Assembly (NCBI GenBank): GCA_963790025.1
Contig: CAWBMP010000005.1
Coordinates: forward strand, 544,001 to 608,000
Source: Nitrospirota bacterium
GTDB taxonomy: Bacteria > Nitrospirota > Thermodesulfovibrionia > Thermodesulfovibrionales > Dissulfurispiraceae
Length of the DNA stretch: 64,000 nucleotides
Direction: 5' to 3'
The notes beneath the pieces are model-generated. The model did not search any database. It worked only from the letters and a program-made list of their open reading frames with translations, and was not told where the DNA came from. The stretch's first letter is position 1. Each line of letters opens with the position of its first letter. Both the position numbers and the translations under genes were made by a program. Below, piece after piece: positions 4,042 through 56,554 of the stretch.

Positions 4042-4161
4042 AGCGCACTGCGTTTAGCGTACTGCGTGAGCGGCAAAGATATTAAATAAAAAAACTTACG
4101 ACCAATATCCACATATTATTAATACGTCTTTTCTTTTACGCAGTACGCTAAACGCAGTACT
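4042..4161. repeat. Inverted pair of 7-nt tandem repeats (AGCGTAC/TGCGTTT type)
   Basis: Perfect 21-bp inverted repeat ACTGCGTTTAGCGTACTGCGT (4047-4067 / 4138-4158) around an AT-rich 70-nt loop. Confidence 0.85.
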
Positions 4162-4179
4162 CATTAATGAGAGGTCGGA

Positions 4180-5832
4180 ATGGCCGGAGAGAATACAAAG
4201 ATTGTATACGTCATAGGACACACGAATCCCGATACCGATTCTGTTTGTTCGGCCATAGGCTATTCGCATTTCAAGAACGTAACTGACAAACGTTTTCTTT
4301 TTACTCCTGCACGGGCCGGTGCCGTCAATGAAGAGACGCGCTTTGTGCTCGAACGATTCGGCGTTCCTGTTCCTAATGAAATAGCGAGTATGACGGCAAC
4401 AGTCAGCGACCTCGAACTGAAGCGGCCCATTACCATACATGAGCGTGAATCAGTGCGGGCTCTTGCTCTTATGATGCGGCAAGAAGGGGTGCGGTCGGTG
4501 CCGGTTGTCGATGACAGCGGACGCCTTTCGGGGGTCGTGGGACTGAAAGATATCGCCCGTCATTATATGGACAGCGTCGGGTTCAACGATATATCGCAGA
4601 CACCCATAAACCTGGATATCCTGGTAAAGACACTCGACGGACACGTGATCAGCAATGCCAATAAAACCGGTCACCTTGTCGGGAGAATCATCGTCGCTAC
4701 TATGCAAAAAGGGACGATTATAAACAAGGTGCGGCCCGGTGACGTTGTTATCATAGGAGATCAGCATGACATACAACTGGAGGTAGTGCGCTCCGGCTGC
4801 TCCGCGCTTATAGTGGTAGAAGGGATGCCCATAGGAAATGATGTTTTGGCCGTAGCGGGCGAGAAGGGCACGCTGGTGATCTCATCTCCTCATCCGGCAT
4901 TTGCGACTGTGCAGCTAATGTCCATGTCGGAGCCGGTAGCATCAATTATGTCAGCTAACAATCCAACAGTCGGGTTATACACGCCAATTGCTGATCTTAG
5001 ATCAAAGCTCCTCGAATCCGAGTACCGCTCTGCGGCTGTGGTGGACAGTGACAGCAGGCTGATAGGGTTTATTACAAGAACGGACTTGCTTGGCCCTGTC
5101 AGGAAAAAGGTCATTCTTGTGGACCATAATGAAATTTCTCAGGCTGTCGACGGTGTCGAGGAGGCCGAAATCCTGGAGATTATAGACCATCACCGTGTCG
5201 GTGATATATCCACTGTGGCGCCCATTTACGTATACAACGATCCTGTAGGGAGCACGTGCTCGGTAGTAGCTGGGGTAATGTTTCTCTACCAGGTCGACAT
5301 CCCCAAGGAAATTGCAGGTGTGCTTCTGTCCGGAGTGCTCTCGGATACCCTGCTTCTGACTCTTTCCACAACGACGGAGCGCGACCGTCTGGCCGCTGCG
5401 CGGCTTGCCGGACTTGCAGGCGTTTCGCTTGAAGAATACGGAAGAGAACTTCTTCATGCCGGCATAAATACACGGGGTAAATCGGCGGCGGCACTAATAT
5501 CAGCGGACTTCAAGGAGTTTATGATAAACGGCCGGAAACTTGGGGTCAGTCAGACCATGGTGCTTGACTGCGAGGAGATCGATCTGAGAGAGGAAGAACT
5601 TCTTGACGAACTGGAAAGGCTGAGGGTTGAAAACAACTATTATATGACTGCCCTTCTTGTAATGAACCCGCTTGTCGCGACATATGAGCGTGTGTTCGTC
5701 AGGGGCGAGGCCTGGGTGGTGGAAAAGGCATTTAGTGTGAAGGTAAGTGAAGGAACATGCAGATTGCCTCGTGTCCTTTCGAGAAAAAAGGACTTTATCC
5801 CCGCAATCGGACAGGCGCTCACAATGAGCTAG
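4180..5832 (+). CDS. ppaC: Family II Mn-dependent inorganic pyrophosphatase with CBS-DRTGG-CBS insert
   Basis: GHTNPDTDS, LVDHNE, IIDHH, C-terminal SRKK; CBS and DRTGG insertion. Confidence 0.92.
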   Translation: MAGENTKIVYVIGHTNPDTDSVCSAIGYSHFKNVTDKRFLFTPARAGAVNEETRFVLERFGVPVPNEIASMTATVSDLELKRPITIHERESVRALALMMRQEGVRSVPVVDDSGRLSGVVGLKDIARHYMDSVGFNDISQTPINLDILVKTLDGHVISNANKTGHLVGRIIVATMQKGTIINKVRPGDVVIIGDQHDIQLEVVRSGCSALIVVEGMPIGNDVLAVAGEKGTLVISSPHPAFATVQLMSMSEPVASIMSANNPTVGLYTPIADLRSKLLESEYRSAAVVDSDSRLIGFITRTDLLGPVRKKVILVDHNEISQAVDGVEEAEILEIIDHHRVGDISTVAPIYVYNDPVGSTCSVVAGVMFLYQVDIPKEIAGVLLSGVLSDTLLLTLSTTTERDRLAAARLAGLAGVSLEEYGRELLHAGINTRGKSAAALISADFKEFMINGRKLGVSQTMVLDCEEIDLREEELLDELERLRVENNYYMTALLVMNPLVATYERVFVRGEAWVVEKAFSVKVSEGTCRLPRVLSRKKDFIPAIGQALTMS

Positions 5833-5922
5833 TCTGCCGCCTGCTATAGTTTCTTGCAAAAGTGACGATTATATATATATAATCTAAACGCGTTGTAAAG
5901 CAATTACCAGGGGGTGTGCTCT

Positions 5923-6888
5923 ATGGCTCAGAGTGCTGGTTCTGTACCGGACGTCCTGAAGGTTGGAACGAATGAAATGGAGCTTGTTGTCTTCAGAATG
6001 TTCAGTTCACATCCTGATGGAACTCCCGAAATTCTTGACTATGGGGTCAATGTTGCAAAGGTAAGGGAGATAATTCCTATGCCGACCTTGACGAAGGTAC
6101 CCGATATGCCTGCCTACGCAGAGGCCCTTGCACAGGTGCGCGGCGAAGTGATCCCCATTGTCGACCTCGGGAAATGGATGAAAGTGAATCCGCCCGCAAG
6201 CATGGATATAAGGCTAAAAGTGATTGTGCTCGAGATGCTCGGCACCACCGTAGGGATGATCGTTCACGAGGTAGAGCGCATACGCAGAATTAAGTGGGAC
6301 CAGATAAAGCCCCCCCCGGCGCTGCTGCAGGCAAAGCACAGCGGAAGGGTCACCGGCGTGACGAAAATAGATGATGAAAGCGACTCGCTGCTGCTCATCC
6401 TGGACCTCGAGAGCGTTATTTCGGAAATGGGCGGGCTTGTCACAAAGCAGGAGATAGCACTGGAAGAGATAGAGAGAATTGACAAGAAAAAGCTGAAGGG
6501 CACCGTGCTTATAGCAGATGACTCCTCTGTTGCCAGAAAAGTGCTCAAAGACATGCTTGAAAACGCAGGTCTTCGCATTATAGAGGCGGTTGACGGCAAG
6601 CAGGCCCTCCAGATACTCAATGACTTTCTGTCGAAGATCGGGGACCAGCCTCTTACGGACTTTGTCCAGTTGATTATCTCTGATGTGGAAATGCCCGAGA
6701 TGGACGGACTTACTTTTACCAAGAATGTAAAAAATAATCCCAAACTGCAAATAGTGCCGGTTATTGTCAATACTTCCCTGAGCGGAGAAGAGAACAAAGA
6801 AAAAGCCAAGGGGGTAGGGGCGGATGGTTACCTTGTAAAATTTGATGTCGGCAAGCTTCTGCACGAGGTATCAAGATTTTTGAAGTAG
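5923..6888 (+). CDS. cheV: Chemotaxis protein CheV (CheW + receiver)
   Basis: N-terminal CheW domain (YGVNVAKVREII), C-terminal receiver (IADDS, SDVEMPEMDG). Confidence 0.93.
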   Translation: MAQSAGSVPDVLKVGTNEMELVVFRMFSSHPDGTPEILDYGVNVAKVREIIPMPTLTKVPDMPAYAEALAQVRGEVIPIVDLGKWMKVNPPASMDIRLKVIVLEMLGTTVGMIVHEVERIRRIKWDQIKPPPALLQAKHSGRVTGVTKIDDESDSLLLILDLESVISEMGGLVTKQEIALEEIERIDKKKLKGTVLIADDSSVARKVLKDMLENAGLRIIEAVDGKQALQILNDFLSKIGDQPLTDFVQLIISDVEMPEMDGLTFTKNVKNNPKLQIVPVIVNTSLSGEENKEKAKGVGADGYLVKFDVGKLLHEVSRFLK

Positions 6889-6892
6889 ACAG

Positions 6893-6923
6893 AGGACTGC
6901 GCACTAGTAAGTTGTGCAGTCCC
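6893..6923. terminator. Hairpin between convergent genes, likely bidirectional terminator
   Basis: GGACTGCGCA-loop-TGTGCAGTCC between cheV and the activator gene. Confidence 0.55.
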
Positions 6924-6928
6924 TTGAA

Positions 6929-7681
6929 CTATCCCGGGCCGTCCGCCGCATAGAGTGCCGCACCCAGCGCGCCGAGCAGATCCGGATGTTCATTCACCCG
7001 GAGGCTGCACTGCAGGCGGGCTTCCATCATTTTAACCAGACACTGATTCCTTGCGCACCCACCGGCAAATACTATGTCTTCATTGATTCCGATCCTTTTT
7101 ATCAGTGAAGTGACCTTGCTCACTATCGAGCCGTGTACTGCATTTGCTATTGTTTCCCTTTTTTCCCCCCTCGCAATGAGGCTTATGACCTCCGATTCCG
7201 CAAAGACTGTACACATGCTGTTAATCCTGATACCGTCATTCATGCCGTCGCATCCCGAGCCGAAGTTTTCCAAATTGTAACCAAGGGCAATCGCCATAAC
7301 TTCAAGAAATTTCCCGGTACCGGCCGCACAGCGGTCATTCATTTCAAAACTGCCCACAGCGCCAAGCTTATTGAGACTTATAGCCTTGGTATCCTGGCCG
7401 CCTATGTCTATAATTGTCCGGCATGCCGGGAATATCTCTTTGGCCCCCCTAGCCACCGCCTTTATTTCCGTAATAGTCCTGACGCTGCCGTGTACTTCAA
7501 GCAGATACCTCCCGTAACCCGTGGCAACAAGCTGTTGTGGTCTGGCGCTGTTGATCAAATCCTGGCATATTGCAAGGGGGGCATGACCGGTCTCCACTTT
7601 TTGAAATGACAGAAGTTCGTTATCTTCAATCAGGACAAATTTTATATAGCGTGAACCGATATCGATGCCCCCTGTTTTCAA
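6929..7681 (-). CDS. ASKHA-type [4Fe-4S] ATPase activator (HgdC / DCCP-R family)
   Basis: GIDIGS, ATGYGR, IIDIGGQDTK, MNDRCAAGTG, CTVFAESEVIS; likely TTG start 7681 (ORF track starts 7708). Confidence 0.9.
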   Translation of the reverse strand: MKTGGIDIGSRYIKFVLIEDNELLSFQKVETGHAPLAICQDLINSARPQQLVATGYGRYLLEVHGSVRTITEIKAVARGAKEIFPACRTIIDIGGQDTKAISLNKLGAVGSFEMNDRCAAGTGKFLEVMAIALGYNLENFGSGCDGMNDGIRINSMCTVFAESEVISLIARGEKRETIANAVHGSIVSKVTSLIKRIGINEDIVFAGGCARNQCLVKMMEARLQCSLRVNEHPDLLGALGAALYAADGPG

Positions 7682-7685
7682 GGCC

Positions 7686-8975: not shown

Positions 8976-9148
8976 ATCCTCCTTTTGTTTTTTCCCCGTT
9001 ACCCTTCAATCATATATGTTAAATGGAGTTTATCTATTTGTAAAATAGATTGTTCCTATGACCAATATAAATTGCATAGATTTTTGATAAGGGGGGAGAT
9101 TTTCGATTGTGAAGACTGATTAGGACACTTCAGGAAACCAAATTATTA

Positions 9149-9213
9149 CTCAAATCCGGCGATAAAGGAGAGCACTTGAGCAGAAGAGGGACCTCCTTAT
9201 CGCCGGATTTGAG
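9149..9213. repeat. Long inverted repeat, terminator-like stem-loop
   Basis: CTCAAATCCGGCGATAA (9149-9165) pairs perfectly with TTATCGCCGGATTTGAG (9197-9213), just downstream of the 77-aa gene. Confidence 0.7.
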
Positions 9214-9214
9214 T

Positions 9215-9448: not shown

Positions 9449-9474
9449 GGCTTAATAGTATAAAAAAAAGCATA

Positions 9475-9610
9475 GGCAAGGGGCAATAGCGTTCAACGTC
9501 AACGGCAAAAGACATTTAATAAGAAACTTGCGAGCAATAATCCGCACATTTTTAATATGTCTTTATTTTTACGCTGTGCGCTGAACACAGTACGCCTATT
9601 GCCTATTGCC
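9475..9610. repeat. Inverted pair of 7-nt tandem repeats (GGCAATA and GCGTTCA types)
   Basis: GGCAAGGGGCAATAGCGTTC on the left; CGCTGAACACAGTACGCCTATTGCCTATTGCC on the right. Confidence 0.65.
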
Positions 9611-9628
9611 CGATGTATTTAGTATGCT

Positions 9629-10803: not shown

Positions 10804-11412
10804 ATGGATAAGATAAAATATTTTTTAATTGGGTTGCTTCTCCTTGTCGTTGCTTCGGCATCAGGCTGGTTTGTAACGAAGTCCTTTATATCTACGGCCC
10901 GGCAGTTTAAACAACCATTGATTGAACTCAAGAGAGAAACTGCTGTCAACACCGGTGTGCCGGCTGCCTTGAGTAATGACGCAGTTGCCGTCAAAATATT
11001 TCTCTCTGCCGATGAAGGGGAGGGGATAACAGTTGAGGAGCTTAAAATTCGGAACAACCCTATTCCTGTTAAAATGGCCGAGGCTATAATGGCTGAATAT
11101 CTTAAGGGGCTGAAATATGGACTGAAGGACACGAAATTGCTTGGGATCTACCGTGATAAGAGGAGTATTATTTACATTGATTTATCGGAGGAGTTCAGGA
11201 AGAACTTTTCAGGCGATGTCAAACAGGAATATTCACTTTTGAAGTCTCTCTATGAAACAATTACCGTGAATATTCCAGGGACAGAGGACGTGCGGGTGCT
11301 GATTGATGGTAAAGAGGTCGAAAGCATAGGAGGCCACTTTAGTGCCTTATATCCTTTGGGGGACACAGTGAGGGACGATCTCCAGCAAACAGCAGATCAA
11401 AAACCAGGTTAA
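10804..11412 (+). CDS. GerMN domain protein
   Basis: N-terminal TM, YIDLS, VRVLIDGKEVESIGGH; amidase-GerMN-murI-rph gene order. Confidence 0.8.
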   Translation: MDKIKYFLIGLLLLVVASASGWFVTKSFISTARQFKQPLIELKRETAVNTGVPAALSNDAVAVKIFLSADEGEGITVEELKIRNNPIPVKMAEAIMAEYLKGLKYGLKDTKLLGIYRDKRSIIYIDLSEEFRKNFSGDVKQEYSLLKSLYETITVNIPGTEDVRVLIDGKEVESIGGHFSALYPLGDTVRDDLQQTADQKPG

Positions 11413-11442
11413 AGGTAAAAGGTCTTTTAACCTTTTACCCTT
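11406..11442. repeat. Inverted pair of 7-nt tandem repeats (AGGTAAA type)
   Basis: AGGTTAA AGGTAAA AGGT followed by TTAACCTTTTACCCTT; includes the GerMN stop codon. Confidence 0.65.
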
Positions 11443-11450
11443 AGTTTATT

Positions 11451-12259: not shown

Positions 12260-12323
12260 AGAGTTCAGCATACTGCGTTCAGAAACACGACAGCTCAGAA
12301 CGCTGAACGCAGTACGCTGAACT
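12260..12323. repeat. Inverted pair of 7-nt tandem repeats (AGCGTAC/TGCGTTC type)
   Basis: AGTTCAGCATACTGCGTTCAG (12262-12282) pairs 20/21 with 12303-12323; followed by a T-run. Confidence 0.8.
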
Positions 12324-24356: not shown

Positions 24357-25565
24357 GTGTCAGACAAAATCAGAGTAAAAAATCCCCTGGTTGAAATGGA
24401 TGGCGACGAGATGACCAGGATTATCTGGCGTCTTATAAAAGAAAAACTTATACAGCCTTTTTTAGATATTGACTTGCGCTATTATGACCTCGGCATTCGG
24501 CACAGGGATGAGACTGAAGACAGGGTCACGGTTGAAGCGGCCAATGCTATCAAGGAGTTCGGCGTAGGCGTCAAGTGTGCTACAATTACTCCCAATGCAG
24601 CACGTGTGAAGGAGTACGGTCTCAAAAAGCAGTGGAAAAGTCCGAACGGAACGATCCGTTCCATCCTCGACGGAACTGTATTCAGAAAGCCGATTATTCT
24701 GAAAAACATCCCGCCTGCCGTGCGCAATTGGAGGAAGCCGATCGTAATCGGGCGTCACGCCTACGGAGATATTTATAAAAACACCGAATTCATCGTTGAG
24801 GAGCCGGGAACTGCCGAACTCGTTTTTAACCCTGCTGGAGGCGGTGAGAAGATAGTGCTCAAGATCCACGATTTCGAAGGGCGGGGCGTAGTGATGGGGA
24901 TCCACAATACTGAATTATCAATCAGGAGTTTTGCACGGTCGTGCATAAACTACGCGCTCGGCGAAAAGCTGGACATATGGTTCGGATCAAAGGACACTAT
25001 ATCAAAACGGTATCATGGTTTTTTCAGGGACCTTTTTGCCGATGAAGTGGAAAAAGCCGGTGACAGACTAAAGCAGGCAGGTATACAATACCGCTATCTC
25101 CTCATTGATGATGCAGTCGCCCAGGTGATAAAGTCCGACGGCGGCATGCTGTGGGCTTGCATGAATTATGACGGCGATGTAATGTCGGATATGGTGGCGA
25201 CAGGCTTTGGAAGCCTCGGGCTCATGACATCGGTGCTCGTTTCTCCCGACGGAAAATTCGAGTTTGAAGCGGCCCATGGCACAGTTGTGAGGCATTACTA
25301 CGCGCACCTCACAGGCAAGCCCACTTCAACAAATTCTATTGCGTCTATTTTTGCGTGGACAGGAGCGCTCGCAAAACGGGGTGAGCTTGACGGTACTCCT
25401 GATGTGGCCGGCTTTGCTCATAAGCTGGAGCGTACCGTTATTGAAACAGCCGAAAGCGGGATTATGACGAAGGACCTGATGCTTATAGCAGATCCGCCTG
25501 TTGCCGAATACGCCCTTACAGGGGAGTTCATAGATGCCGTAGCGGAAAGACTAAAAATAAGGTAA
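24357..25565 (+). CDS. icd: NADP-dependent isocitrate dehydrogenase (type II)
   Basis: [40 protein letters not shown]. Confidence 0.97.
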
Positions 25566-25723
25566 AGGTAGAGGCAAAGGCAAAGGTAAGAAATAATTGA
25601 AATATTGAGGGTCTTGCAAAAGTCTATGTATTATTATAGAGGTCTTTATCGGGAATCCATTTATTCAAAAAATAATCCCTTCCGTTGTCTTTTTTACTTA
25701 ACCTTTATCTCTGCCTTTGCCTG
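25560..25723. repeat. Inverted pair of 6-nt tandem repeats (AGGTAA/AGGCAA type)
   Basis: AGGTAA AGGTAG AGGCAA AGGCAA AGGTAA; inverse arm 25693-25723; both flanking stop codons lie inside the arms. Confidence 0.75.
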
Positions 25724-28238: not shown

Positions 28239-28278
28239 AGGTAGAGGTAAAGGTTGAGGTAAAGAACCTTTACCTCTG
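28239..28278. repeat. Inverted pair of 6-nt tandem repeats
   Basis: AGGTAG AGGTAA AGGTTG AGGTAA followed by ACCTTTACCTCTG; contains the hydrolase stop codon. Confidence 0.7.
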
Positions 28279-29402: not shown

Positions 29403-29454
29403 TTCTTCCAACAGTGTGTTATCATAACAAGCGTCCCATTCAGAGTCAAATAAA

Positions 29455-29557
29455 GCATAGGCACAGGTAAAGGTAGAGTTAGAGGAAAAGCTATAAAGGA
29501 ATCTGTTTTATTTTCTTTATTTTCACTTAGCTTTAACCTCAACCTTTGCATTTACCT
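29455..29557. repeat. Inverted pair of 6-nt tandem repeats in the kdp leader
   Basis: AGGTAA AGGTAG AGTTAG AGGAAA; inverse TTTAAC CTCAAC CTTTGC ATTTAC CT. Confidence 0.7.
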
Positions 29558-29580
29558 ATGTTTTTAAGGAGGGTTGAGTT

Positions 29581-31479: not shown

Positions 31480-33510
31480 ATGGCTAAGCCGTCGGCAGTA
31501 GCAGCATTTGAATCAAACATAATGCGCAAAGCGGTCCTGGATGCTTTAAAAAAGCTCAGTCCCGGGGTGCTTTATAAGAATCCAGTGATGTTTGTAGTTG
31601 AAATCGTGAGCGTTATGACCACGGTCTCTTTTTTCAGTGATCTGTTTTCAAACTCCGGCAATGCCCTATTTACCGGACAAATCAGCGCCTGGCTCTGGTT
31701 TACAGTCCTATTTGCAAATTTTGCAGAGGCCCTTGCAGAAGGCCGTGGAAAGGCCCAGGCTGAGACCTTGAGAAAGGCCCGGCGGGACACCCAGGCCGTT
31801 GTCCGGAAACCGGACGGAAGTACGGAGACAATCGCCTCCTCAATGCTTAAAAAAGGCGATATTGTGATAGTCAGCACCGGACAAGCTATTCCGGGCGACG
31901 GTACAGTGATAGACGGAGTGGCGCTGGTGGACGAATCAGCCATTACAGGTGAGTCTGCACCTGTGATCCGGGAAGCCGGGGGAGACCGCAGCGCAGTGAC
32001 CGGCGGAACTACGGTGCTGTCCGATCAGATTATCATTCAGATTACGCAGGAGCCCGGCAAATCTTTTCTCGATCGCATGATCGCGCTGGTGGAAGGTGCG
32101 GTGCGGCAGAAGACGCCCAATGAGATAGCCCTGAGCATCATGCTTTCCGGGCTTACCATAGTATTTCTTCTCGCTGTAGTCACCCTTAAGCCGTTTGCCA
32201 TGTATAGCAAAGCTGAGGCCTCCATGGTCATTCTTGTTGCCCTGCTTGTTTGCCTGATCCCTACAACTATCGGAGGGCTCCTTTCAGCTATCGGTATTGC
32301 CGGCATGGACAGGCTGGTCAGAAGAAATATCCTTGCCACATCGGGCCGGGCGGTGGAGGCAGCCGGCAACATCGATGTGCTGATTCTGGACAAGACCGGG
32401 ACAATTACGGTTGGCAACCGGATGGCAACGGAGTTCATGCCGGCCACGGGTGTGAGCGAAAGGGAGCTTTCAGAGGCGGCTTGCCTTGCGTCGGCATGCG
32501 ACCTCACTCCGGAGGGCAGGTCCATTGTCACACTTGGTGAACAAAAAGGCGTGAAGGCAATTTGCCCTGCGGATGCCCAACTTATTCCTTTTACAGCAGA
32601 AACGAGGATGAGCGGAGTGGAATTTGGAAGCACGTCGATCAGGAAAGGCGCTATGGACGCTATAGCAACCTGGCTCAAAGGAAACAGTGGAGTGTTGCCT
32701 CCTGAAGTCCAAAAGTCGGTTGAGAAAATTGCTGAATCAGGCGGCACGCCCCTTGTTGTTGCCAATAAGGAAAAAGCGTTAGGCGTCATATTCCTCAAGG
32801 ACGTAGTCAAACCGGGCATTGCAGACCGTTTTGCACGTATACGGGCCATGGGGATCCGTACCATAATGATTACTGGAGACAACCGTCTTACCGCGGCAGC
32901 TATTGCCAAGGAAGCGGGCGTTGACGATTTTCTGGCTGAAGCTACTCCGGAAGACAAGCTTAAGCTTATCCGTTCGATCCAGCAGGAAGGGAGGCTGGTA
33001 GCTATGAGTGGTGACGGCACCAACGATGCGCCTGCCCTCGCTCAGTCTGACGTGGGGCTTGTCATGAATACAGGCACCCAGGCGGCGCGCGAGGCGGGAA
33101 ATATGATCGACCTCGATTCCGATCCCACAAAAATCATCGACGTGGTCGAAATCGGCAAGCAGTTGCTCATCACGCGGGGGTCCCTTACCACCTTCAGCAT
33201 TGCGAACGATGTTGCAAAGTACTTTGCAATCATTCCTGCAATGTTTATGATTGCCTATCCGGGTCTCAAGGCGCTTAATATAATGGGACTCGCGAGTTCA
33301 GAAAGCGCTATATTATCGGCGGTAATATTCAATGCCCTGATCATCATCGGTTTAATACCGCTTGCATTGAAGGGCGTAGCCTACCGCCCGCAATCCGCTG
33401 TAAAAATACTGCGCTACAATGTGTTGGTTTACGGGTTAGGAGGCATCATAGCCCCCTTTATAGGCATAAAAATCATCGATATGCTTATCAGCATGCTTCA
33501 TATGGCGTAA
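31480..33510 (+). CDS. kdpB: K+-transporting ATPase subunit B
   Basis: TGES, LIPTTIG, DKTGT, GDGTND. Confidence 0.98.
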
Positions 33511-33629
33511 AGAAGTAAAAAGTAAATAGTAAGGTCAAAAAAATACAAAGTAAGAACTGAAAAGATGAGAATTTAAAAGTAAGAAGTCCAGGGCGTTAAT
33601 TTTTACTTTTCGCTTTTTACTTCTTACTT
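33511..33629. repeat. Inverted set of 7-nt tandem repeats (AAAGTAA type) between kdpB and kdpC
   Basis: GAAGTAAAAAGTAAATAGTAA...AAAGTAAGAAGT; inverse TTTTACTTTTCGCTTTTTACTTCTTACTT. Confidence 0.75.
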
Positions 33630-34238: not shown

Positions 34239-34247
34239 TATAAAAGA

Positions 34248-34343
34248 AAGTTAGAGGTTCGAGGTTAGAGGCAAAGGCCTGTTGTTCGGTTTTTTTTTGC
34301 CTTTCGTCTTCGACTTTTGCCTCCAACCTCTGATCTCTAACCT
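34248..34343. repeat. Inverted pair of 7-nt tandem repeats (AGGTTAG type)
   Basis: AAGTTAG AGGTTCG AGGTTAG AGGCAAA; inverse CTCCAAC CTCTGAT CTCTAAC CT. Confidence 0.75.
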
Positions 34344-34371
34344 TATAAACTATCTTTCGGAGGCATTAGAA

Positions 34372-35517
34372 TTGACTTTGGAGAGCACCGGCTTTGAAGC
34401 GCTTTTGGAGAGAAAGACAAAAGGCTCTCTGAAAATCTACCTTGGATATGCCGCGGGTGTCGGAAAAACCTATGAAATGCTTCAGGAGGGTCATCGTCTC
34501 AAGGAGCAGGGTTACGATGTTGTGGCGGGGTATATCGAGCCTCACGACCGCCCGGATACTATAAAGCTGATGGAAGGGATTGAAATAGTCGAGCCGCTTC
34601 GTCTCAGTATTGCCAATATTAAGGTGCTTGAGATGGACATCGAGGGTATAATTAAGCGCAACCCTCAAATAGTGCTTGTAGACGAAATGGCCCACACAAA
34701 TGCAGCGGGTTCAAAGAATGAGAAGCGATTTCAGGACGTGCTCGAAATTCTTGACCACGGCATCAATGTCATTACCACGCTAAACATCCAGCATTTTGAA
34801 ACCATCGCCGATAAGGTGGACACAGCGCTCAGAGTGCCGGTGGGGGAGCGGGTGCCTGATTATATTCTTCAGCGGGCCGACCAGATCGTCAATGTGGATG
34901 TAACTATCGAAGAACTGCGGGAGAGGCTTCGGTCCGGTAAGATATACGAAATGTCAAAAGCGGAAAGGGCGCTTGTTCAATTTTTTACACATGAGAATCT
35001 TTCTCTTCTGCGGAAATTGGCGCTCCAGGAGGCTGCTGATGACCAGCTAAGGAAGATTGAAGAGGACCGTCTTTTGTCAGAGCTGGCCGCCAAGGAAGCA
35101 GATGAGGCGGTCATGGCGGCAATGAGTTCTGGCGCTCCCAATGCAGAGGCCCTTATCAGGAAAGCGGCAAAGCTGTCAGCCAGGCTTTCAGCCCGGTGTT
35201 ATATCGTCTATGTACAGAGAAAACAGGAAGCCCCGGAACGTATTAATGCAGCCTTACAAAGAAAGCTCCTGTCCAATTTAAAGCTTGCCAAAATGCTTGG
35301 CGCCGAAGTAGTGACACTGCATGGCGAGGATGTTGCGGAAACATTGGTGAATTTTGCGCAAACCCATAAAGTGCGCCATGCGATCTTCGGCAAGACAGCC
35401 AGGTCTCCTATAAAAGAGCGGCTTTTCGGATCGGTGATTCAGGACTTCATTAATGATTCGGTGGGGATAGATGTTCACATTGTAGCCCCCACACCTTATC
35501 GGGAGGACGAAGAATGA
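34372..35517 (+). CDS. kdpD: Stand-alone KdpD N-terminal + Usp domain protein (split KdpD)
   Basis: LKIYLGYAAGVGKTY, LVDEMAHTN, TTLNIQH, C-terminal Usp domain; no TM or kinase domain; TTG start 34372 with GGAGG RBS. Confidence 0.85.
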   Translation: MTLESTGFEALLERKTKGSLKIYLGYAAGVGKTYEMLQEGHRLKEQGYDVVAGYIEPHDRPDTIKLMEGIEIVEPLRLSIANIKVLEMDIEGIIKRNPQIVLVDEMAHTNAAGSKNEKRFQDVLEILDHGINVITTLNIQHFETIADKVDTALRVPVGERVPDYILQRADQIVNVDVTIEELRERLRSGKIYEMSKAERALVQFFTHENLSLLRKLALQEAADDQLRKIEEDRLLSELAAKEADEAVMAAMSSGAPNAEALIRKAAKLSARLSARCYIVYVQRKQEAPERINAALQRKLLSNLKLAKMLGAEVVTLHGEDVAETLVNFAQTHKVRHAIFGKTARSPIKERLFGSVIQDFINDSVGIDVHIVAPTPYREDEE

Positions 35518-37307
35518 CGGTGCTTCCTCCGCTGCGAAGAAAGATACTCCACGGCTATCTCACCTTCGTTGGCGTGTTCGGGGTCATGTGTATTTTGCTC
35601 ATCCTTTCCTCTGTTTACATGGCTACGGGCCTTAGCCCAAGAATCATTCACTCCAATTACGATTCTATCGAGGCCACAAGGAAAATGCAGAAGTCGTGGA
35701 ACGCGCTTCATTTTCCCTACGCTTACCCCGGCTCACCGAAAGAAGCCTGGATCAAGCAATTTAATGATGCGTTGCATTTTGAGTTGTCTAATATTACCGA
35801 GCCTGGTGAAGATAAAATCGCCGACAGGATAGAAGAACTGTGGGACATATGGAAACGCGGCGGCGGGTCTGATGATCTGACGAGGGAAATGAACGACGAG
35901 TTCGAAAAATTGACGTTGCTTAATGAAAAAGGGATGTTTGAACTTGTCGCCAAATCAGCTAAGGTCCGGCGTGCAGTTGTCATCGGAGTTGCATTATTTT
36001 TTGCCGTTACTTTTATTATTACTCTTTTAGTGGTTGATTCACTTTCAAGCCGATTGGCAAAGCCGCTCAAAGATATCGCCGAGGTGCTCCGCTCAAAGAT
36101 AAGGCCGGGAGAGAGACTCAAACTGCCTGAACCCACGAGTCTGGAAATACGCATACTTAACGAGGAACTCACGTCATTATGGGAGAGAGTGGGCCGTTCG
36201 GAGCAGCTTAATGTTGAAAAAATTCTGAGACAAAGAAACCAGTTGGAAACACTCCTGTCTGCGGTCGAGGATGCGGTCATTGCCCTGGATGACAAGGGGC
36301 GTGTCACTCATGTGAACCAAAGAATGGCGCAACTCATCGGCCTTGGCACGGATAGTATAGTCGGCATGCTCTGGGCCGATCTTTCATCTGTTTCGGGTAA
36401 TTATATCAAGCTTCGGGAGGTGTTGAGGGAGCGGGAAAAAGAGGGCGCCCAGGTTTTCGAACTCAGGACCGAAAAAGAGGGCAATAGAAGCTTTGAGGCG
36501 CGGGTCAGGGAGGTCTCGTCTCCTTCTGGAGAACTGATTTCGACAATTTTTCTTCTCCATGATGTTACCGAGATACGCCAAAGAGAACGGCTGAAGACGG
36601 AATTCATAGGAGTGCTCTCTCATGAGCTCAAGACCCCGCTTCAGTCCCTCGGCACGGCCGTAGAACTTCTCGCACAGAAAAAAGACTCCTTTGATGAGCG
36701 GTCGCGATTTCTTATTGAGACCCTTGTGAGCGATGCCGGGCGCATACGCGCGGTTGCCAATCAGTTCATACAGGTTGATCATATGCCGGGGACTGCCATT
36801 CACATACACCCGGAGTTGACCAAAATAAGTGAACTTCTTCCCGAATGGCTCAAACCATTTGAATTGCTTGCGGCTGAGCGTTCGGTCGTTTTGCGCTATG
36901 AGAAGGCAAGCGAGGGAGATATTTGGGCCGAAATTGATCCGGCCAAATTTCCATGGGTGATCTCAAACCTGCTCACTAACTCCCTGAGGGTTTCCCCGCA
37001 TGACTCGGTTGTCGAAGTGTTCCTTTCGGTCAGCGGCGGTCATGTCGAGATCGAGGTGAGGAACCAGGGACCAAAAATACCCGAAGAGATCCGCAGGCGT
37101 ATGTTCGATCCCTATTTTAAAGGAACAGGTGAGAAAGCCGGCAGTCCCGCCCATGCTCCGGGCTATCTCGGATTGGGATTAACGATCGTTAAAGAGGTGA
37201 CCGAGGCGCACGGCGGAAGTGTAGAATACTCGGATGTTGAACCGACCGGGTCATGTTTCAGGATACTTCTGCCGATTCCCCAAATAATCGGTGACATGGG
37301 AATATGA
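35514..37307 (+). CDS. Membrane sensor histidine kinase (periplasmic sensor-HAMP-PAS-HisKA-HATPase), KinB-like
   Basis: Two TM segments, SHELKTPL, WVISNLLTN, GLGL; ATGA overlap. Confidence 0.92.
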   Translation: MTVLPPLRRKILHGYLTFVGVFGVMCILLILSSVYMATGLSPRIIHSNYDSIEATRKMQKSWNALHFPYAYPGSPKEAWIKQFNDALHFELSNITEPGEDKIADRIEELWDIWKRGGGSDDLTREMNDEFEKLTLLNEKGMFELVAKSAKVRRAVVIGVALFFAVTFIITLLVVDSLSSRLAKPLKDIAEVLRSKIRPGERLKLPEPTSLEIRILNEELTSLWERVGRSEQLNVEKILRQRNQLETLLSAVEDAVIALDDKGRVTHVNQRMAQLIGLGTDSIVGMLWADLSSVSGNYIKLREVLREREKEGAQVFELRTEKEGNRSFEARVREVSSPSGELISTIFLLHDVTEIRQRERLKTEFIGVLSHELKTPLQSLGTAVELLAQKKDSFDERSRFLIETLVSDAGRIRAVANQFIQVDHMPGTAIHIHPELTKISELLPEWLKPFELLAAERSVVLRYEKASEGDIWAEIDPAKFPWVISNLLTNSLRVSPHDSVVEVFLSVSGGHVEIEVRNQGPKIPEEIRRRMFDPYFKGTGEKAGSPAHAPGYLGLGLTIVKEVTEAHGGSVEYSDVEPTGSCFRILLPIPQIIGDMGI

Positions 37308-38647
37308 GTCAACTTCGCGTTCTTTTGGTAGATGATGATAACAATATCCGCGTGACACTTAATGTTTCATTGTCGGATATGGGGCATCATGTTGTTGCCG
37401 TGGCGTCGCTGAAAGAGGCCATAGAGGCCTTGAAAGCCGGGATTTTTGATCTTGTCCTTACGGATTTCCGTTTGGGCGGACCCACCGGAATTGACGTGAT
37501 ACGGGAGGCGAGACGTATTCAGCCCGAAGTGATTATGGTAGTGATGACCGCTTATTCTTCGATCGAAAATGCGATCCAGGTCACAAAAGAAGGGGCGTTC
37601 GATTATCTTCCGAAGCCTTTTACCAATTCCCAACTTGTTCACATGCTGGAAAAGGTCCAGACACTTATCTCTCTCAAGAGAGAGAATGAGGCATTAAGAA
37701 GCGAACGTTACCGGCCTGATTATTTCTTCGGTTTTGTTTCGACGGCAATGCAGCGGCTCGAAAAATTCGTGAATCAGGTAGCTCCGACAGACGAAACGAT
37801 ACTGATTACCGGAGAAAGCGGGACCGGTAAGACAGAACTGGCCAAACTCATTCACAGCCGCTCACGCAGGGCAGCAGGCCTATTTGTAACGGTTTCCTGT
37901 ACTACTCTCGCAGAGTCGGTCCTGGAATCCGAGCTTTTCGGGCATGTGAAGGGTGCTTTCACCGGCGCTGTAAGTGAGAAGGTGGGAAAGCTCGAACTGG
38001 CCGATAACGGCACTCTTTTCCTGGATGAGATTGGCGACCTTTCACTTTCAGCCCAGACAAGGCTTTTAAGGTTTCTTCAGGAGAAAATTATCGAGAGAGT
38101 CGGCGGAACGGATGAAATCAGGGTGAATAGCCGTATTATTGCTGCAACCAATCATGATTTAAAAGAGGCCGTAGCAAACCGGGGATTCCGGGAGGACCTG
38201 TATTACCGTCTCAATATCCTGGAAAGTTACGTGGTCCCTCTCAGGCACCGGAAAGAAGATATACCTGTATTGATTCAACGCTTCATAAAGGAGGCTGCAA
38301 CCCGGCAGGGGAAATCATATGTCCCGGTGATCCCTAAAAAAATAATGCAGAAGCTCCTTGAATATTACTGGCCCGGCAACGTCCGTGAATTGAAAAACAC
38401 ATTGGAAAGGATAGTGATTCTTACTAATGGAGAAGAGGTTGAAGATGCTTACCTTCCCCCTGCAATCCTGGCATCGAACAATACCTATGCTGACAAAGGC
38501 AAAAAGCTGAAGACCCTTGAGCAAATGGAAAAAGAGCAAATACTTGCTGTTTTGGAAGCGGAACAGAACCTGGAGAAAGCAGCCGAAATCCTCGGAATAA
38601 CTTCGGTCACTCTCTGGCGAAAACGCAAACAATACGGAATACCCTGA
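37304..38647 (+). CDS. Sigma-54-dependent response regulator (NtrC/AlgB-like)
   Basis: Receiver domain, [22 protein letters not shown], Fis-type HTH. Confidence 0.95.
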
Positions 38648-38653
38648 AAAAAC

Positions 38654-38727
38654 AGGTAAAGGCAAAGGTGAAGGTTAAGATAAAAACAAAATAACAACAA
38701 ACGCTATGCCTGCATCTATACCTGCCT
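38654..38727. repeat. Inverted pair of 6-nt tandem repeats between convergent genes
   Basis: AGGTAA AGGCAA AGGTGA AGGTTA AGATAA; inverse arm CTATGC CTGCAT CTATAC CTGCCT. Confidence 0.65.
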
Positions 38728-47778: not shown

Positions 47779-48279
47779 ATGATGGCGGATGAACATTCGT
47801 TCGATGTTGTATGCGAAGTTGATATGCAGGAAGTAACCAATGCTGTAAGCCAGGCCGCAAAGGAGATCGGGCAGCGGTTTGATTTTAAAGGGAGCAAGAG
47901 TAACATAGATTTTGACAAGGGGAAGGGCATCATTACACTTGCATCCGATGATGAACAGAAGATGAAGAGTGTTATCGATATTCTCCAGACTAAGCTCGTG
48001 AAGCGTGCCGTTGCACTAAAGGCGCTCGCTTACGGCAAGCTGGAACCAGCGGCCGGGAATACCGTCAGGCAGGTAATAACGCTCCAACAGGGCATACCCC
48101 AGGAGAAAGCCAAGGAAATAGTTAAAATCATAAAAGACATGAAGCTCAAGGTGAACTCTGAAATTCAGAAAGACCAGGTCCGGGTGAAAGCCAAAAAAAT
48201 AGATGATTTGCAGGTTATTATGGCCCACCTCAAGGAAAAGGACCTTGGTATACATATCCAATTTTCCAATTACCGGTGA
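47779..48279 (+). CDS. yajQ: YajQ family nucleotide-binding protein
   Basis: SFDVV, RFDFKGSKS, DQVRV..KKIDDLQ, QFSNYR. Confidence 0.95.
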   Translation: MMADEHSFDVVCEVDMQEVTNAVSQAAKEIGQRFDFKGSKSNIDFDKGKGIITLASDDEQKMKSVIDILQTKLVKRAVALKALAYGKLEPAAGNTVRQVITLQQGIPQEKAKEIVKIIKDMKLKVNSEIQKDQVRVKAKKIDDLQVIMAHLKEKDLGIHIQFSNYR

Positions 48280-48382
48280 CGGACTAGTAAAAAGTTCATA
48301 GGCAAGGCGTCAAGCACTCAACACGTTGCTTATGGACAATTTGAGCGCTCGAAAGTACATGAGCTTTTTACGGGGCCGCTCA
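48277..48382. mobile_element. Short TIR-bounded element (second MITE-like family)
   Basis: TGACGGACTAGTAAAAAGTTCAT ... ATGAGCTTTTTACGGGGCCGCTCA imperfect TIRs; its first TGA is the yajQ stop. Confidence 0.6.
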
Positions 48383-49189: not shown

Positions 49190-49270
49190 AGCATACAGCG
49201 TGCTGAGTTGTGCTTTCAGTGTTAACAAAAACATTCTTTTTGCAGAACGCAATACGTTGTACGCAGAATC
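49190..49270. repeat. Degenerate inverted pair of 7-nt tandem repeats (AGCGTAC type)
   Basis: AGCATAC AGCGTGC TGAGTTG TGCTTTC; inverse GCAGAACGCAATACGTTGTACGCAGAA. Confidence 0.55.
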
Positions 49271-53038: not shown

Positions 53039-53066
53039 TAAGGCGTACTTTATTATTGATATTTGA

Positions 53067-53099
53067 ACAGGGACGGTCAGGAAAAGAGCCGTCCCTGTC
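53067..53099. terminator. Bidirectional terminator hairpin
   Basis: ACAGGGACGG-loop-CCGTCCCTGT between convergent genes, followed by a T-rich tract. Confidence 0.65.
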
Positions 53100-53104
53100 T
53101 TATT

Positions 53105-53584: not shown

Positions 53585-53606
53585 AATACCTCCGATTTTA
53601 AAACGG

Positions 53607-54323
53607 TTATGCGTTTTTTTGAGGCAATGCCATATATGATTTTACCTTGACCTTTACTTGGTAATTTCTGTAACGGATCGATAAATGGGATTGGTACCAT
53701 GACATTTCAGGGTCCAGTATGCTTTCTGTTGTTCCATATTCGCTCCGGACCGGAGTATCGTAAGATATGAATAATTTCTCTCCATTATCGAGTTCTATTG
53801 TCTGTTCAAGCGGAAGAAGGTCTTTTTTCCCGATTATCAGCTTCCTGTTGAAATTTCTTAATATGTAAACATCCTTTTCTTCCTGGACCGTATAGTCTTT
53901 GATGGTCCACCACAGAAAGCTGTTTTTCAGGCCGTTTACCAGAACTATGATCTTGTTCTTGTCCATCTTCGGTTTGCTGTGTATGACGCCGTTGTCCTCG
54001 GTCAACTCCCCATACAGAAAACCCAGATAATAAATTCTGAGGTCCAGTGCAGAAGGTGAAAGGTCCATGTGGGCATCGCCGCTCATCGTCGCGTCATTTT
54101 TTTCGTAGTCTATAGCCAAAATCGCCTCCACGGACTTGACGGTATTCATCTTTTCCATAATATCGGCAAGAGCAAGCCCCTCGCGGGACGGTTTTTCAGC
54201 AATTTTGGGCGCACAGGAAACAAAAAGAAACAGGCAAAGGGCAAAAACAAGCAGTGTTTTACCTTTAACCTTTAACCTTTCGCCTTTACCCTTCTTTAAT
54301 GTGTTCCATCGTTTCTTCAACAT
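53607..54323 (-). CDS. Hypothetical lipoprotein (possibly LolA/LolB-like fold)
   Basis: Basic N-terminus, hydrophobic stretch, lipobox FVSC; GGAG RBS upstream of ATG 54323. Confidence 0.7.
54231..54290. repeat. Inverted pair of 7-nt tandem repeats inside the lipoprotein signal peptide
   Basis: Minus strand GGGTAAA GGCGAAA GGTTAAA GGTTAAA GGTAAAA followed by TTTTTGCCCTTTGCCTG. Confidence 0.75.
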
Positions 54324-55644
54324 TTTTCACTCCTATTATCGTTAATCCCAAATCGGTCTTAAGGCGCTCCATGTTGCCTTTTGGTATGATCGCTTTTTTA
54401 AAGCCTATCTTTGCCGCCTCTTTGAGCCTTGATTCCCCCTGCGCAACTGCCCGAACTTCACCTGATAGCCCGACCTCTCCGAAAAGAAAGGTCTTGGAAT
54501 CTATCGGTATCTCTCTGAACGATGAGGCGATTGCCGCAATAATGCCGAGGTCGGAGGCCGGCTCGATTACTTTCAGGCCCCCGACAATATTAATAAAGAT
54601 ATCCATTCCCCCCAAGTGCATGCCCGCTTTTTTTTCGAGCACGGCAACGAGGAGATTTACCCTGTTATAATCAACGCCCATGCTTGTTCTCCTGGGCATC
54701 CCGAACGTAGTGGGCGCTACCAGGGCCTGTATTTCAACGAGTAAGGGACGCGTGCCTTCCATGCTGGCTATTACTGTCGAGCCCGAGACATTGAGAGGTC
54801 TCTCTGACAGAAAAAGCTCCGAGGGGTTGCTGATCTCTGCCAGACCGCTGTCGGTCATTTCGAATACGCCTATTTCATTAGTTGAGCCGAACCTGTTTTT
54901 TACTGTGCGGAGAATGCGGTAAGGATGTCCCCTGTCACCCTCGAAATACAGCACCGTATCAACAAGGTGTTCCAGTACACGGGGCCCCGCAATTGCCCCT
55001 TCTTTGGTTACATGTCCTATAAGGAAAACAGGGACGCGTGTTTTCTTTGCAAAGAGCATCAGTTTGGCTGCCGATTCCCTTACTTGGCCCACTGAACCAG
55101 GCGCCGAAGTAAGGTCCTCGGTAAATATTGTCTGTATGGAATCGACCACAAGGGCGGCAGGCTTGAGTTCCCTGGCAGTTATTATAATATTTTCAACCAG
55201 TGTCTCGGGCAGCAGGATAATTGTTCCGGCATTGATCGAAAGCCGTTCAGCCCTCAATTTGATCTGTTCCGGAGATTCTTCACCAGACACATAAAGAACC
55301 GTCTTCTGATGTGCTATTTTTGCCAACGCCTGGAGGATAAGCGTGGATTTCCCGATGCCCGGATCACCGCCAATAAGCACAATGGAGCCGTCGACCAAGC
55401 CTCCGCCGAGCACTCGGTCCAACTCCTGTATGCCGATACAGTTTCTCCGCTCCTTTCCCCCGGTAATTGCATTCAGGGGTTGGGCTTCGGCAACGCCGTA
55501 GGAGTTTGAGGATTTCAATGCCTTGGGGCTTTGCCGCTCCTCTGAGAAACTGTTCCATGCGCCGCAATCAGGGCACTTGCCGAGCCATTTAGGGCTCGCA
55601 TAGCCGCAGGTCTGACACTGAAAAACAGTTTTAATTTTAGTCAT
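54286..55644 (-). CDS. radA: DNA repair protein RadA/Sms
   Basis: C4 zinc finger, GDPGIGKST, KNRFG, Lon-like C-terminus. Confidence 0.98.
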   Translation of the reverse strand: MTKIKTVFQCQTCGYASPKWLGKCPDCGAWNSFSEERQSPKALKSSNSYGVAEAQPLNAITGGKERRNCIGIQELDRVLGGGLVDGSIVLIGGDPGIGKSTLILQALAKIAHQKTVLYVSGEESPEQIKLRAERLSINAGTIILLPETLVENIIITARELKPAALVVDSIQTIFTEDLTSAPGSVGQVRESAAKLMLFAKKTRVPVFLIGHVTKEGAIAGPRVLEHLVDTVLYFEGDRGHPYRILRTVKNRFGSTNEIGVFEMTDSGLAEISNPSELFLSERPLNVSGSTVIASMEGTRPLLVEIQALVAPTTFGMPRRTSMGVDYNRVNLLVAVLEKKAGMHLGGMDIFINIVGGLKVIEPASDLGIIAAIASSFREIPIDSKTFLFGEVGLSGEVRAVAQGESRLKEAAKIGFKKAIIPKGNMERLKTDLGLTIIGVKNVEETMEHIKEG

Positions 55645-55648
55645 AGCA

Positions 55649-55729
55649 AGTTAGATGCAGGTATAGGCAGAGGCATAGGTAAAGGAAAGGCCCTGCTGTC
55701 ATTTGTCTTTACCTCTATCTTTACCTTTG
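55649..55729. repeat. Inverted pair of 6-nt tandem repeats
   Basis: AGTTAG ATGCAG GTATAG GCAGAG GCATAG GTAAAG; inverse CTTTAC CTCTAT CTTTAC CTTTG. Confidence 0.7.
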
Positions 55730-55730
55730 T

Positions 55731-56495
55731 TTATAAATTAAGCAGCCGCATTCCTTTTCCGAGCGTGAAAGCGCTTTCGATAGCCTCTATGACGAATGCC
55801 CTGGCTGCACTCGTGGCATCGATGACAGAGGCCCCGTTAGCAAGTGACGCAGTGACGGCGGCAGAGAATGCGCATCCGGTTCCGTGGAATTCGCCGGGTA
55901 TCTTCCTGCCCCTGAACCGGTGAAATGCCTTGCCGTCATAGAGCAGTTCAAGCGTCTCACCCTCCAGATGTCCGCCGGTGATGATTACCACTTCGGGGCC
56001 AATCCTTTTTAATGCAATTGCGGCCTGCTCCATTGTCTCCTCGTCCGATACGGCAATACCGGTGAGAGTTGAAGCCTCCATGAAATTCGGCGTAATGACT
56101 TTTGCCAGAGGAAACAGCTCCTCCCTCATCACATCGACGGCCTTTTTTTCCAGAAGGCTTGTGCCGGAAGAAGATAAGATAACCGGGTCTACCACGAGAT
56201 TTTGCAGGTCAAATTCTGTTACTACTTTAGCTACCGACTTCACGGCATCAGCGGAGAGAAGCATCCCCGTTTTGAGCGCACCGGGCCGAATATCAGCAAG
56301 AATAGTGTTTAATTGTTCATATAAAAAAGGACCTTCTATCCTTTCAATTGCGCTGACCTTCAAAGTATTTTGCGCCGTAACAGCGGACAGCGCCGAGAGG
56401 CCGTAGACGGCAAAGCGGCTAAAAACCTTTAGATCGGCCTGTATCCCGGCCCCTCCCGAAGGGTCCGAACCTGCTATGGTCAGGGCAATTTTCAT
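55731..56495 (-). CDS. thiD: Hydroxymethylpyrimidine/phosphomethylpyrimidine kinase
   Basis: TIAGSDPSGGAGIQADLK, TAQNT, ITPN, HGTGC. Confidence 0.96.
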   Translation of the reverse strand: MKIALTIAGSDPSGGAGIQADLKVFSRFAVYGLSALSAVTAQNTLKVSAIERIEGPFLYEQLNTILADIRPGALKTGMLLSADAVKSVAKVVTEFDLQNLVVDPVILSSSGTSLLEKKAVDVMREELFPLAKVITPNFMEASTLTGIAVSDEETMEQAAIALKRIGPEVVIITGGHLEGETLELLYDGKAFHRFRGRKIPGEFHGTGCAFSAAVTASLANGASVIDATSAARAFVIEAIESAFTLGKGMRLLNL

Positions 56496-56515
56496 GACAC
56501 AATTAGTATATCAGA

Positions 56516-56554
56516 AAGTTATAGGTTAGAGGATAGAGGTTGGAGACCTCTAAC
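56516..56554. repeat. 7-nt tandem repeats (AGGTTAG type) with short inverse arm
   Basis: AAGTTAT AGGTTAG AGGATAG AGGTTGG followed by CCTCTAAC. Confidence 0.6.

Follow-up and report, generated by a model that had tools for sequence, protein, structure and literature searches.

The stretch analysed here is a 64,000-nt window of a 3.45-Mb Nitrospirota genome (the genome is labelled G000, its congeners G001-G009, and window positions are used throughout). Within it, 14 junctions between protein-coding genes are occupied by foldback elements consisting of three to six degenerate units of 6 or 7 nt, a spacer and the reverse-complement units. Many such elements lie inside operons, as at kdpB-kdpC, kdpC-kdpD, fabG-acpP, murI-rph and secA-ppaC. 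A first-pass annotation had listed the 14 sites, and all of them were recovered by reading the sequence, with unit types agreeing with those it gave (10 with good stems and 4 weak ones). No open reading frame (ORF) was found inside any of the 14 elements and none of them sits in helix 25 or 45 of 23S rRNA; a search of the window against Rfam at gathering thresholds gave no match, rRNA included. We regard it as probable, if far from certain, that the 14 sites are the gene-less form of hairpin-armed cassettes that carry either a four-helix-bundle gene (TIGR02436, the S23p family of 23S rRNA intervening sequences) or a GxxExxY gene, and that they are part of a genome-wide population.

Tandem Repeats Finder run with default-like settings reported arrays at 10 of the sites. 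Each site was folded against 200 dinucleotide shuffles, and Table 1 gives the z-score and how many shuffles equalled or bettered the native fold. No shuffle matched the native fold at 4042, 9475, 12260, 25560, 28239 and 34248; the sites at 29455, 49190 and 56516 also outfolded at least 190 of the 200 shuffles, and 11406 was borderline. Hence 10 of the 14 sites possess a long stem formed by terminal inverted repeats, as do 23S rRNA intervening sequences (IVSs). The claim that the array often supplies the upstream stop codon holds, because the ORF ends of icd, the ORF at 10804-11412, kdpB, the hydrolase gene and radA lie in or at the first unit when compared with the array coordinates; for icd the stop codon comes from the first AGGYAR unit.

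Table 1. Foldback elements at 14 gene junctions of the window and their folding relative to 200 dinucleotide shuffles
Span	Element and context	Arms and units	z (shuffles folding at least as well)	Remarks
4041..4158	secA stop-ppaC foldback	arms 4047-4067, 4138-4158; 14-nt double unit AGCGYAC/TGCGTTY	-7.9 (0/200)	70-nt spacer holds its own small hairpin
9470..9611	nested foldback	outer GGCAATA-type arms ~9470-9488, 9591-9611	-3.9 (0/200)	inner GCGTTCA-type foldback at 9487-9596
11405..11444	short foldback upstream of murI	AGGTTAA/AGGTAAA units	-2.0 (10/200)	overlaps stop of ORF 10804-11412; terminator-like pattern on both strands
12262..12323	murI-rph foldback	arms 12262-12282, 12303-12323; GCGTTCA/GCGTACT units	-6.1 (0/200)	
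25559..25722	foldback after icd	AGGYAR array 25559-25589, complement 25705-25722	-4.5 (0/200)	115-nt spacer
28239..28277	hexamer foldback, convergent chemoreceptor/hydrolase stops	arms 28243-28255, 28265-28277	-5.4 (0/200)	terminator-like on + strand
29452..29564	foldback upstream of small ORFs before kdpA	AGGYAR and GTTAGAG units	-3.2 (2/200)	
33507..33629	kdpB-kdpC foldback	arms 33510-33532, 33603-33625; AAGTAAA units	-1.6 (14/200)	weak
34247..34344	foldback between kdpC and kdpD-like gene	arms 34247-34275, 34316-34344; GAGGTTA	-5.3 (0/200)	
38654..38724	hexamer array after sigma-54 response-regulator gene	array 38654-38684	-0.6 (53/200)	complementary arm degenerate; convergent with argS
49191..49263	fabG-acpP foldback	GCGTRCA-type units	-2.6 (4/200)	
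54231..54293	inverted arrays at radA stop	left GGCAAAG; AGGTTAA complement 54257-54293	-0.2 (77/200)	weak stem
55649..55729	hexamer foldback, thiD stop to radA start		-1.6 (16/200)	minus-strand operon
56516..56560	short foldback, divergent thiD/rplM	GAGGTTA-type	-2.8 (2/200)	just upstream of TTGACA/TATAAT promoter-like site

Two further features of the window were noted beside these sites. Positions 9148-9214 are taken up by a non-periodic inverted repeat whose two 18-bp arms (9148-9165 and 9197-9214) match perfectly and enclose a loop of 31 nt. The kdp operon is followed, at 34282-38647, by a KdpD-like sensor that is not a kinase, by a histidine kinase encoded separately and by a sigma-54-dependent response regulator; there is no classical kdpDE pair.

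The first-pass annotation had made its case depend on such repeats being more frequent than in shuffled DNA, and genome-wide they are. Under permissive settings of Tandem Repeats Finder (at least 3 copies), 411 period-6 and 460 period-7 arrays were detected, compared with 124 and 116 in a genome shuffled in 200-nt blocks. After merging of period-6, -7, -12 and -14 arrays, 286 of the resulting 1434 arrays had a reverse-complement partner within 250 nt (score of at least 24) against 32 in a complement-only control. An independent search for ungapped inverted repeats gave 547 raw hits versus 33 in the block-shuffled genome. When the 382 merged inverted repeats were sorted by the periodicity of their arms, 106 had a period of 7 nt, 34 of 6 nt, 19 of 8 nt and 8 of 9 nt, with periods of 4, 5 or 10 nt in 4 and no periodicity in 211. 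The window is not exceptional in this respect (7 elements detected versus 4.8 expected per 64 kb). Combining the two detectors resulted in a catalogue of 260 elements; detector sensitivity is about one half, and because the union recovers just 7 of the 14 sites noted earlier, 260 is a lower bound.

Across the genome an element comprises two inverted arrays, each with 2-6 degenerate units of 6-9 nt, separated by a spacer of roughly 10-110 nt; most arms contain 3-5 units, and the medians are 24 nt for the arm and 39 nt for the loop. That these are not copies of one repetitive extragenic palindrome (REP) was borne out, in that units differ from site to site and yet about ten unit families recur genome-wide: AGGYAR, AAGTAAA, AGGCNAT, GCAGYAR, the double unit GCGTACA/GCGTTCA, GAGGTTN, AAGGCWA, TAGCTCA, ATGRGTAA, and CACAGAGA together with a 9-nt relative. 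Purines exceed 60% of the 5' arm in 164 of 192 elements and fall below 40% in 5; because the element is an inverted repeat, this purine-first arm is seen on both strands. Gene context, taken from a crude ORF map, placed 129 elements at co-directional, 49 at convergent and 21 at divergent junctions against a background of 1083, 314 and 382. Elements occupy the short interval separating a stop codon from the ribosome-binding site of the gene that follows: at co-directional junctions their median start is 3 nt past the stop codon (interquartile range -7 to 10), and their end lies a median of 19 nt ahead of the next start.

What connects these gene-less elements to cassettes is that both share one architecture and the same unit families. 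This genome possesses two TIGR02436 genes, both of which lie between inverted hexamer arrays, and no match to a GxxExxY gene. The statement of the first-pass annotation that similar repeats flank four-helix-bundle and GxxExxY genes elsewhere was confirmed, for the former in this genome and for both in a set of 30 relatives, themselves mutually related. TIGR02436 is present in 21 of these 30, and all 23 four-helix-bundle loci examined there are flanked by inverted periodic arrays with scores of 19-73 (at least 24 in 21 loci and at least 30 in 18), while among 940 small ORFs of this genome taken as a control only 12 reach a score of 24 and only 3 a score of 30. All four GxxExxY loci detected in the relatives are likewise flanked (scores 25-51), three of them by CACAGAG-type units, and CACAGAG units also occur as empty foldbacks here. 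Conversely, families that are only empty in this genome (GGCAATA, AAGGCTA and AGTGTCAG) flank four-helix-bundle genes in congeners. Of the 48 neighbouring frames that could be assessed, 47 run in the same direction as the four-helix-bundle gene they adjoin. A search for other cargo, with the partner array 250-3000 nt away, returned 11 pairs, of which the two four-helix-bundle cassettes alone are purine-first around a single small ORF; the others are adjacent foldbacks with ordinary genes between them. At housekeeping loci (about 8.5 kb per genome), foldbacks were detected in 14 of the 21 genomes with TIGR02436 versus 2 of the 9 without it, an association with a one-sided Fisher p of 0.03 that ignores kinship and comes from insensitive detectors. 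In two congeners, GxxExxY and four-helix-bundle genes lie within some 2-3 kb of each other (G004:C2:1592977-1595191 and G003:C104:29504-32422).

A direct filled-to-empty comparison was provided by one junction. The cassettes of G002, G007 and G009 map to C2:470852-471400 of this genome, where the foldback C2:471158-471332 is built of the same unit family as those orthologous cassettes, and its 97-nt loop aligns to the first ~30 codons of the four-helix-bundle gene with an E-value of 3.9e-9. This empty copy is thus a cassette that has lost most of its gene. In addition, a G002 cassette, including both arms, is precisely absent here between two adjacent genes, showing that cassettes are gained or lost together with their arms as one unit. 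Gene-less copies have also been duplicated together with their spacer in one case: the 4042 element and the inner element of 9475 (9487-9596) align through arms and spacer with 82 invariant columns of 127. BLAST of the 4042 spacer against this genome returned only itself, and the 9475 copy was seen just by direct alignment. Insertion of new elements at the apex of older foldbacks was considered and rejected: under stringent conditions about 2 of 13 raw nested pairs are periodic within periodic, and the looser nesting at 9475 and in the fabG-acpP junction of G005 is insufficient for it.

To see how the junctions behave between species, orthologous sequences of the congeners were read by eye, covering 13 of the 14 sites (all but 9475, for which no orthologue was obtained) with one to nine of the nine congeners per site. 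The stop codons, ribosome-binding sites and promoter boxes on either side are kept, and the intervening segment varies, a junction having no element, one of the same unit family or one of another family; ancestral-looking junctions are at most 40 nt long or overlapping. The proposed comparison of relatives thus shows variation both in the presence or absence of the element and in its unit family. The secA stop and ppaC start overlap without an element in G005 and G007, and the murI-rph spacer is 19-40 nt and element-free in 7 of 9 congeners, with an AGGTAA-type hexamer foldback in G004. Upstream of murI (11405), congeners have hexamer or 9-mer-family foldbacks, or nothing. After icd, G007 has an AAGGCWA-type foldback and G006 and G009 have none, and at the divergent thiD/rplM junction an AAGGCTA-type foldback occupies the same point in G007, with none in G001 and G009. 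G007 further shows a junction of 7 nt without an element at 28239, a lone three-unit purine array at 29452, a GGCAAAG-type foldback at kdpB-kdpC and no periodic foldback between kdpC and the kdpD-like gene. At 38654, G002 holds a complete AGGTTA foldback.

The fabG-acpP junction, compared in nine congeners, illustrates the full range: G005 has the same family plus a nested inner foldback, G002, G003 and G008 have the TAGCTCA family, G001 and G009 single arrays, and G004 and G007 no element or another hairpin, with the stop codon and ribosome-binding site conserved. At the radA stop, clear foldbacks of at least three unit families are present in 5 of 8 congeners, G009 has an unclear single array, and G006 and G008 have none. 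The thiD-radA distance is -3 nt in G007 and 12 nt in G002, and in G001, G004, G006 and G008 the junction is filled by an unrelated MITE (a miniature transposable element with inverted repeats) of ~220-260 nt. Turnover at orthologous junctions is therefore fast, and on the reading favoured here these elements are not conserved terminators. DNA contigs from sequencing runs were either identical low-coverage pieces, probably from the source sample, or distant relatives, and gave no strain-level information on the elements.

Other repeats were also noted. The MITE at thiD-radA belongs to the family of a non-periodic inverted-repeat element at 1095-1277 of the window (40-nt arms, 103-nt core), which has 24 members with a conserved core and is apparently a MITE; a second family has 13 copies. 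A 32-nt stretch just after a yajQ-like gene (48278-48310) has dozens of ~91% identical counterparts in each congener searched and resembles part of the same MITE superfamily. Elsewhere in G000, C4:712309-712504 contains about five tandem 28-nt palindromes at 42-nt spacing, with spacers too short for a CRISPR array. A radA match in G007 (C9:190171-191193) has 8 in-frame stops, perhaps because the gene is broken or the assembly faulty.

The arms themselves were examined for whether pairing or sequence is what is kept. Each family has some unit positions that are nearly invariant and one or two that are free. Between the two arms, free positions match in 48-77% and conserved positions in 80-100% of cases, and matching of free positions in register exceeds both a one-unit-shifted control and independence, indicating that the arms are related in register, although the detector's choice of the best register may contribute. 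By analogy with IVS stems in 23S rRNA, the arms would pair in polycistronic RNA and hold the host flanks together, which would make an insertion tolerable in operons, and the paired arms are probably a substrate of RNase III. The sequence of the units may matter as well, being read either by the pentameric cargo protein or by the agent that moves the elements, given that motif positions are conserved and pairing is not specially protected.

Several observations speak against reading the 14 sites as emptied cassettes. A gene remnant was recognised in just 1 of 260 elements, which was also the single match among all intergenic six-frame translations, and a hidden Markov model built from 4 GxxExxY proteins of relatives found no remnant in elements or intergenic regions. 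The suggestion that the sites are footprints therefore stands for one foldback outside the window (C2:471158-471332); because only that one carries a remnant, most elements are not recent footprints, and descent from filled cassettes, demonstrated for one, is an extrapolation for the others. No cargo gene was found at the orthologues of the 13 junctions in the congeners retrieved, so that part of the proposed comparison was negative. Spacers are mostly unique, with loops of at least 30 nt forming clusters of 6, 4, 2, 2 and 2 only, which does not look like recent copy-and-paste; judged as a MITE would be, the elements share their arms with cargo cassettes and their internal sequence only within the 4042/9475 pair and these few small clusters. 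The stems at 33511, 38654, 54231 and 55649 are not above chance relative to shuffles, the second arm being badly degenerate at 38654 and 54231. On the sense strand of co-directional elements, 74 G.U and 84 A.C mismatches occur among 2421 paired positions, and since G.U is not in excess of A.C there is no sign of selected RNA pairing. G005 has foldbacks and no four-helix-bundle match in an assembly that is 81% complete, and 61 of the 260 elements fall inside crude ORFs.

The same holds for the machinery that a repeat-guided insertion/excision system, as conceived in the first-pass annotation, would need: no evidence was obtained for its enzyme or target site, no transposase was found, and no target-site duplication is visible at the junction boundaries read in congeners. 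The reverse transcriptase domain RVT_1 has no match in this genome, and a templated origin of the kind seen in diversity-generating retroelements or with Avd-like proteins was dropped for that reason. Eleven Y1_Tnp genes (IS200-like, or like REP-associated tyrosine transposases, RAYTs) are present, most in open frames of ~260-330 aa; a link to them was rejected, as only 1 of the 11 has a periodic foldback within 1.5 kb compared with 22% of random windows.

If instead the elements were RNA structures selected by the host without mobility (bidirectional terminators, 3'-end stabilisers, RNase III sites, or structures like REPs and bacterial interspersed mosaic elements), with cargo genes merely sitting in hairpins, several observations would fit: the elements sit tight against stop codons and are under-represented at divergent junctions, AAAA precedes 65 and TTTT follows 57 of 192 elements compared with ~9% of random intergenic 12-mers, and some loops contain small GC-rich hairpins. 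Heptamer repeats near stop codons of Xanthomonas are moreover reported as transcribed (PMC4692102). However, an intrinsic terminator has a short GC-rich stem, a loop of 3-8 nt and a U-tract, a pattern matched by the whole element at 2 of the 14 sites (11406 and 28239) and missed at the other 12, the genome-wide median loop being far longer; many sites are intra-operonic, and most congeners have no element or another unit family at the same junction. Nor does the mismatch balance described above favour RNA pairing or lend support to the RNA-processing stems suggested in the first-pass annotation, and if only a plain stem mattered, nothing would call for arms built of tandem units whose motif positions are conserved. 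We consider this explanation unlikely. Origin in place, in which slippage builds an array, quasi-palindrome template switching copies it and cargo is captured later without any insertion, would account for the unpaired single arrays at orthologous junctions (fabG-acpP in G001 and G009, upstream of kdpA in G007) and for period-6 and -7 arrays being 3-4 times commoner than in the shuffled genome with only part of them paired. At one orthologous locus every unit of both arms differs by the same base between species pairs (GGCNATR versus GGCNAAR), and slippage of heptamers was suggested earlier (Mrazek 2007; cited in PMC4692102 and PMC4679880). By contrast, slippage or homogenisation predicts that units within an arm resemble one another more than units from different loci, and the opposite was observed (mean distances of 1.4-2.1 within an arm versus 1.1-1.9 between loci), which argues against slippage. 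The same discrete unit families recur at dozens of loci and in different families of the order, where they go with the type of cargo, whole cassettes are present or absent with their arms as a block, and the 4042 and 9475 elements have a spacer in common, leaving this origin a lower probability again.

A last alternative makes complementarity a by-product, the arrays themselves being rows of putative opposite-strand binding sites for a ring-shaped protein such as a pentameric four-helix bundle. The division of unit positions into near-invariant and free ones, the weaker match of free than of conserved positions between arms and the prevalence of arms with 3-5 units are as it would have them, and the S23p homologue of Xanthomonas forms a homopentameric toroid (Lin 2006; cited in PMC4990558). 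Against it, the two four-helix-bundle genes are both hexamer-armed in a genome with about ten unit families, and free positions match in register above both controls so that the arms are related in register; we judge it the least probable of the three. Emptied or gene-less cassettes thus remain the interpretation that we favour for the 14 sites.

Among known systems, the closest include the ORF-bearing 23S rRNA IVSs with an S23p gene of Coxiella, Leptospira, Xanthomonas and Brucella (PMC4990558). The Coxiella IVS has a 28-bp stem of terminal inverted repeats that is cut by RNase III, and variable-number tandem heptamers in its 5' part, upstream of a decaying S23p ORF (PMC4990558). The likeness lies in the long stem that terminal inverted repeats make about a small gene of the S23p family, as in the cassettes, in the tandem heptamers and the decay of the ORF, and in a host transcript that tolerates the insert. 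The elements here differ in lying between protein-coding genes, in reaching hundreds of copies and about ten unit families in one genome, and in lacking an S23p/TIGR02436 ORF at the 14 sites, such an ORF being found in the two cassettes and, as a remnant, at C2:471158; cutting by RNase III is known for the IVS only.

Also close is the class of heptameric repeats that lie between genes in Xanthomonas and Nostoc (Rehm et al. 2015, PMC4692102), to which the long simple-sequence repeats of Mrazek (2007, cited there) can be added; 70-75 convergent inverted heptamer pairs per Xanthomonas genome are reported (PMC4692102). Both classes have tandem units of ~7 nt, are intergenic, lie at or overlap the upstream stop codon and often form convergent inverted pairs, and in both, length and sequence vary between close species (PMC4692102). 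By contrast, the single G-rich unit of that class is a proposed G-quadruplex former, whereas many families exist here, most without G-tracts, and the listed ones (AGGTAA, AAGTAAA, AGGCAAT, GCAGTAA, GAGGTTA and others) have no run of three or more G. The Xanthomonas and Nostoc loci are also described as more stable than controls, unlike the hypervariable junctions here. The main text of PMC4692102 does not use the words S23, intervening, terminator or RNase, so it draws no link to cargo genes. TAACTGA direct repeats are described in PMC4679880, and the intrastrand-triplex repeats of PMC4666352 were set aside as a different motif class.

REPs, the hairpins formed by their pairs (REPINs) and RAYTs (PMC3116915) resemble the present system in being abundant short intergenic hairpin repeats that also flank one or a few protein genes, but here there is no single conserved palindrome, arms consist of tandem units in about ten families with mostly unique spacers, RAYT-like genes are not associated as described above, and the flanked genes are not known transposases. 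In build, the elements also resemble eukaryotic Foldback and Galileo elements (PMC3573991, PMC3688188), whose long terminal inverted repeats are made of short tandem repeats, with multiple transposase-binding sites in those of Galileo and with many copies lacking a coding middle. Those elements are, however, eukaryotic, kilobase-sized and have a known transposase, and the likeness is one of build only, with no homology expected. In the open-access literature, no paper was found that connects tandem-unit foldbacks between genes with TIGR02436 or GxxExxY genes. The new points are how abundant the empty form is and that it is linked to cassettes.

More tentatively, and with less confidence than we have in the reading of the 14 sites, these elements may represent an unnamed bacterial class of mobile foldbacks: paired inverted arrays, built on a motif of 6-9 nt, that carry nothing or one small gene (an S23p four-helix bundle or a GxxExxY nuclease fold), that would reside in operons because their arms rejoin the flanks of the transcript, and whose motif would be read by the pentameric cargo protein. 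Intergenic heptamer repeats and 23S rRNA intervening sequences with their four-helix-bundle genes have been catalogued for decades without explanation; if the proposal is true, a single family of elements would underlie them as well as the four-helix-bundle and GxxExxY genes that occur in high copy. In one genome, at least 260 gene-less and two filled copies of one architecture coexist, together with a documented filled-to-empty transition, and GxxExxY in relatives is a second, unrelated cargo. For annotation, the elements matter in providing stop codons, in changing C-termini and in lying between genes that are translationally coupled. A cargo-optional foldback element tolerated by operons is thus offered as a testable hypothesis.

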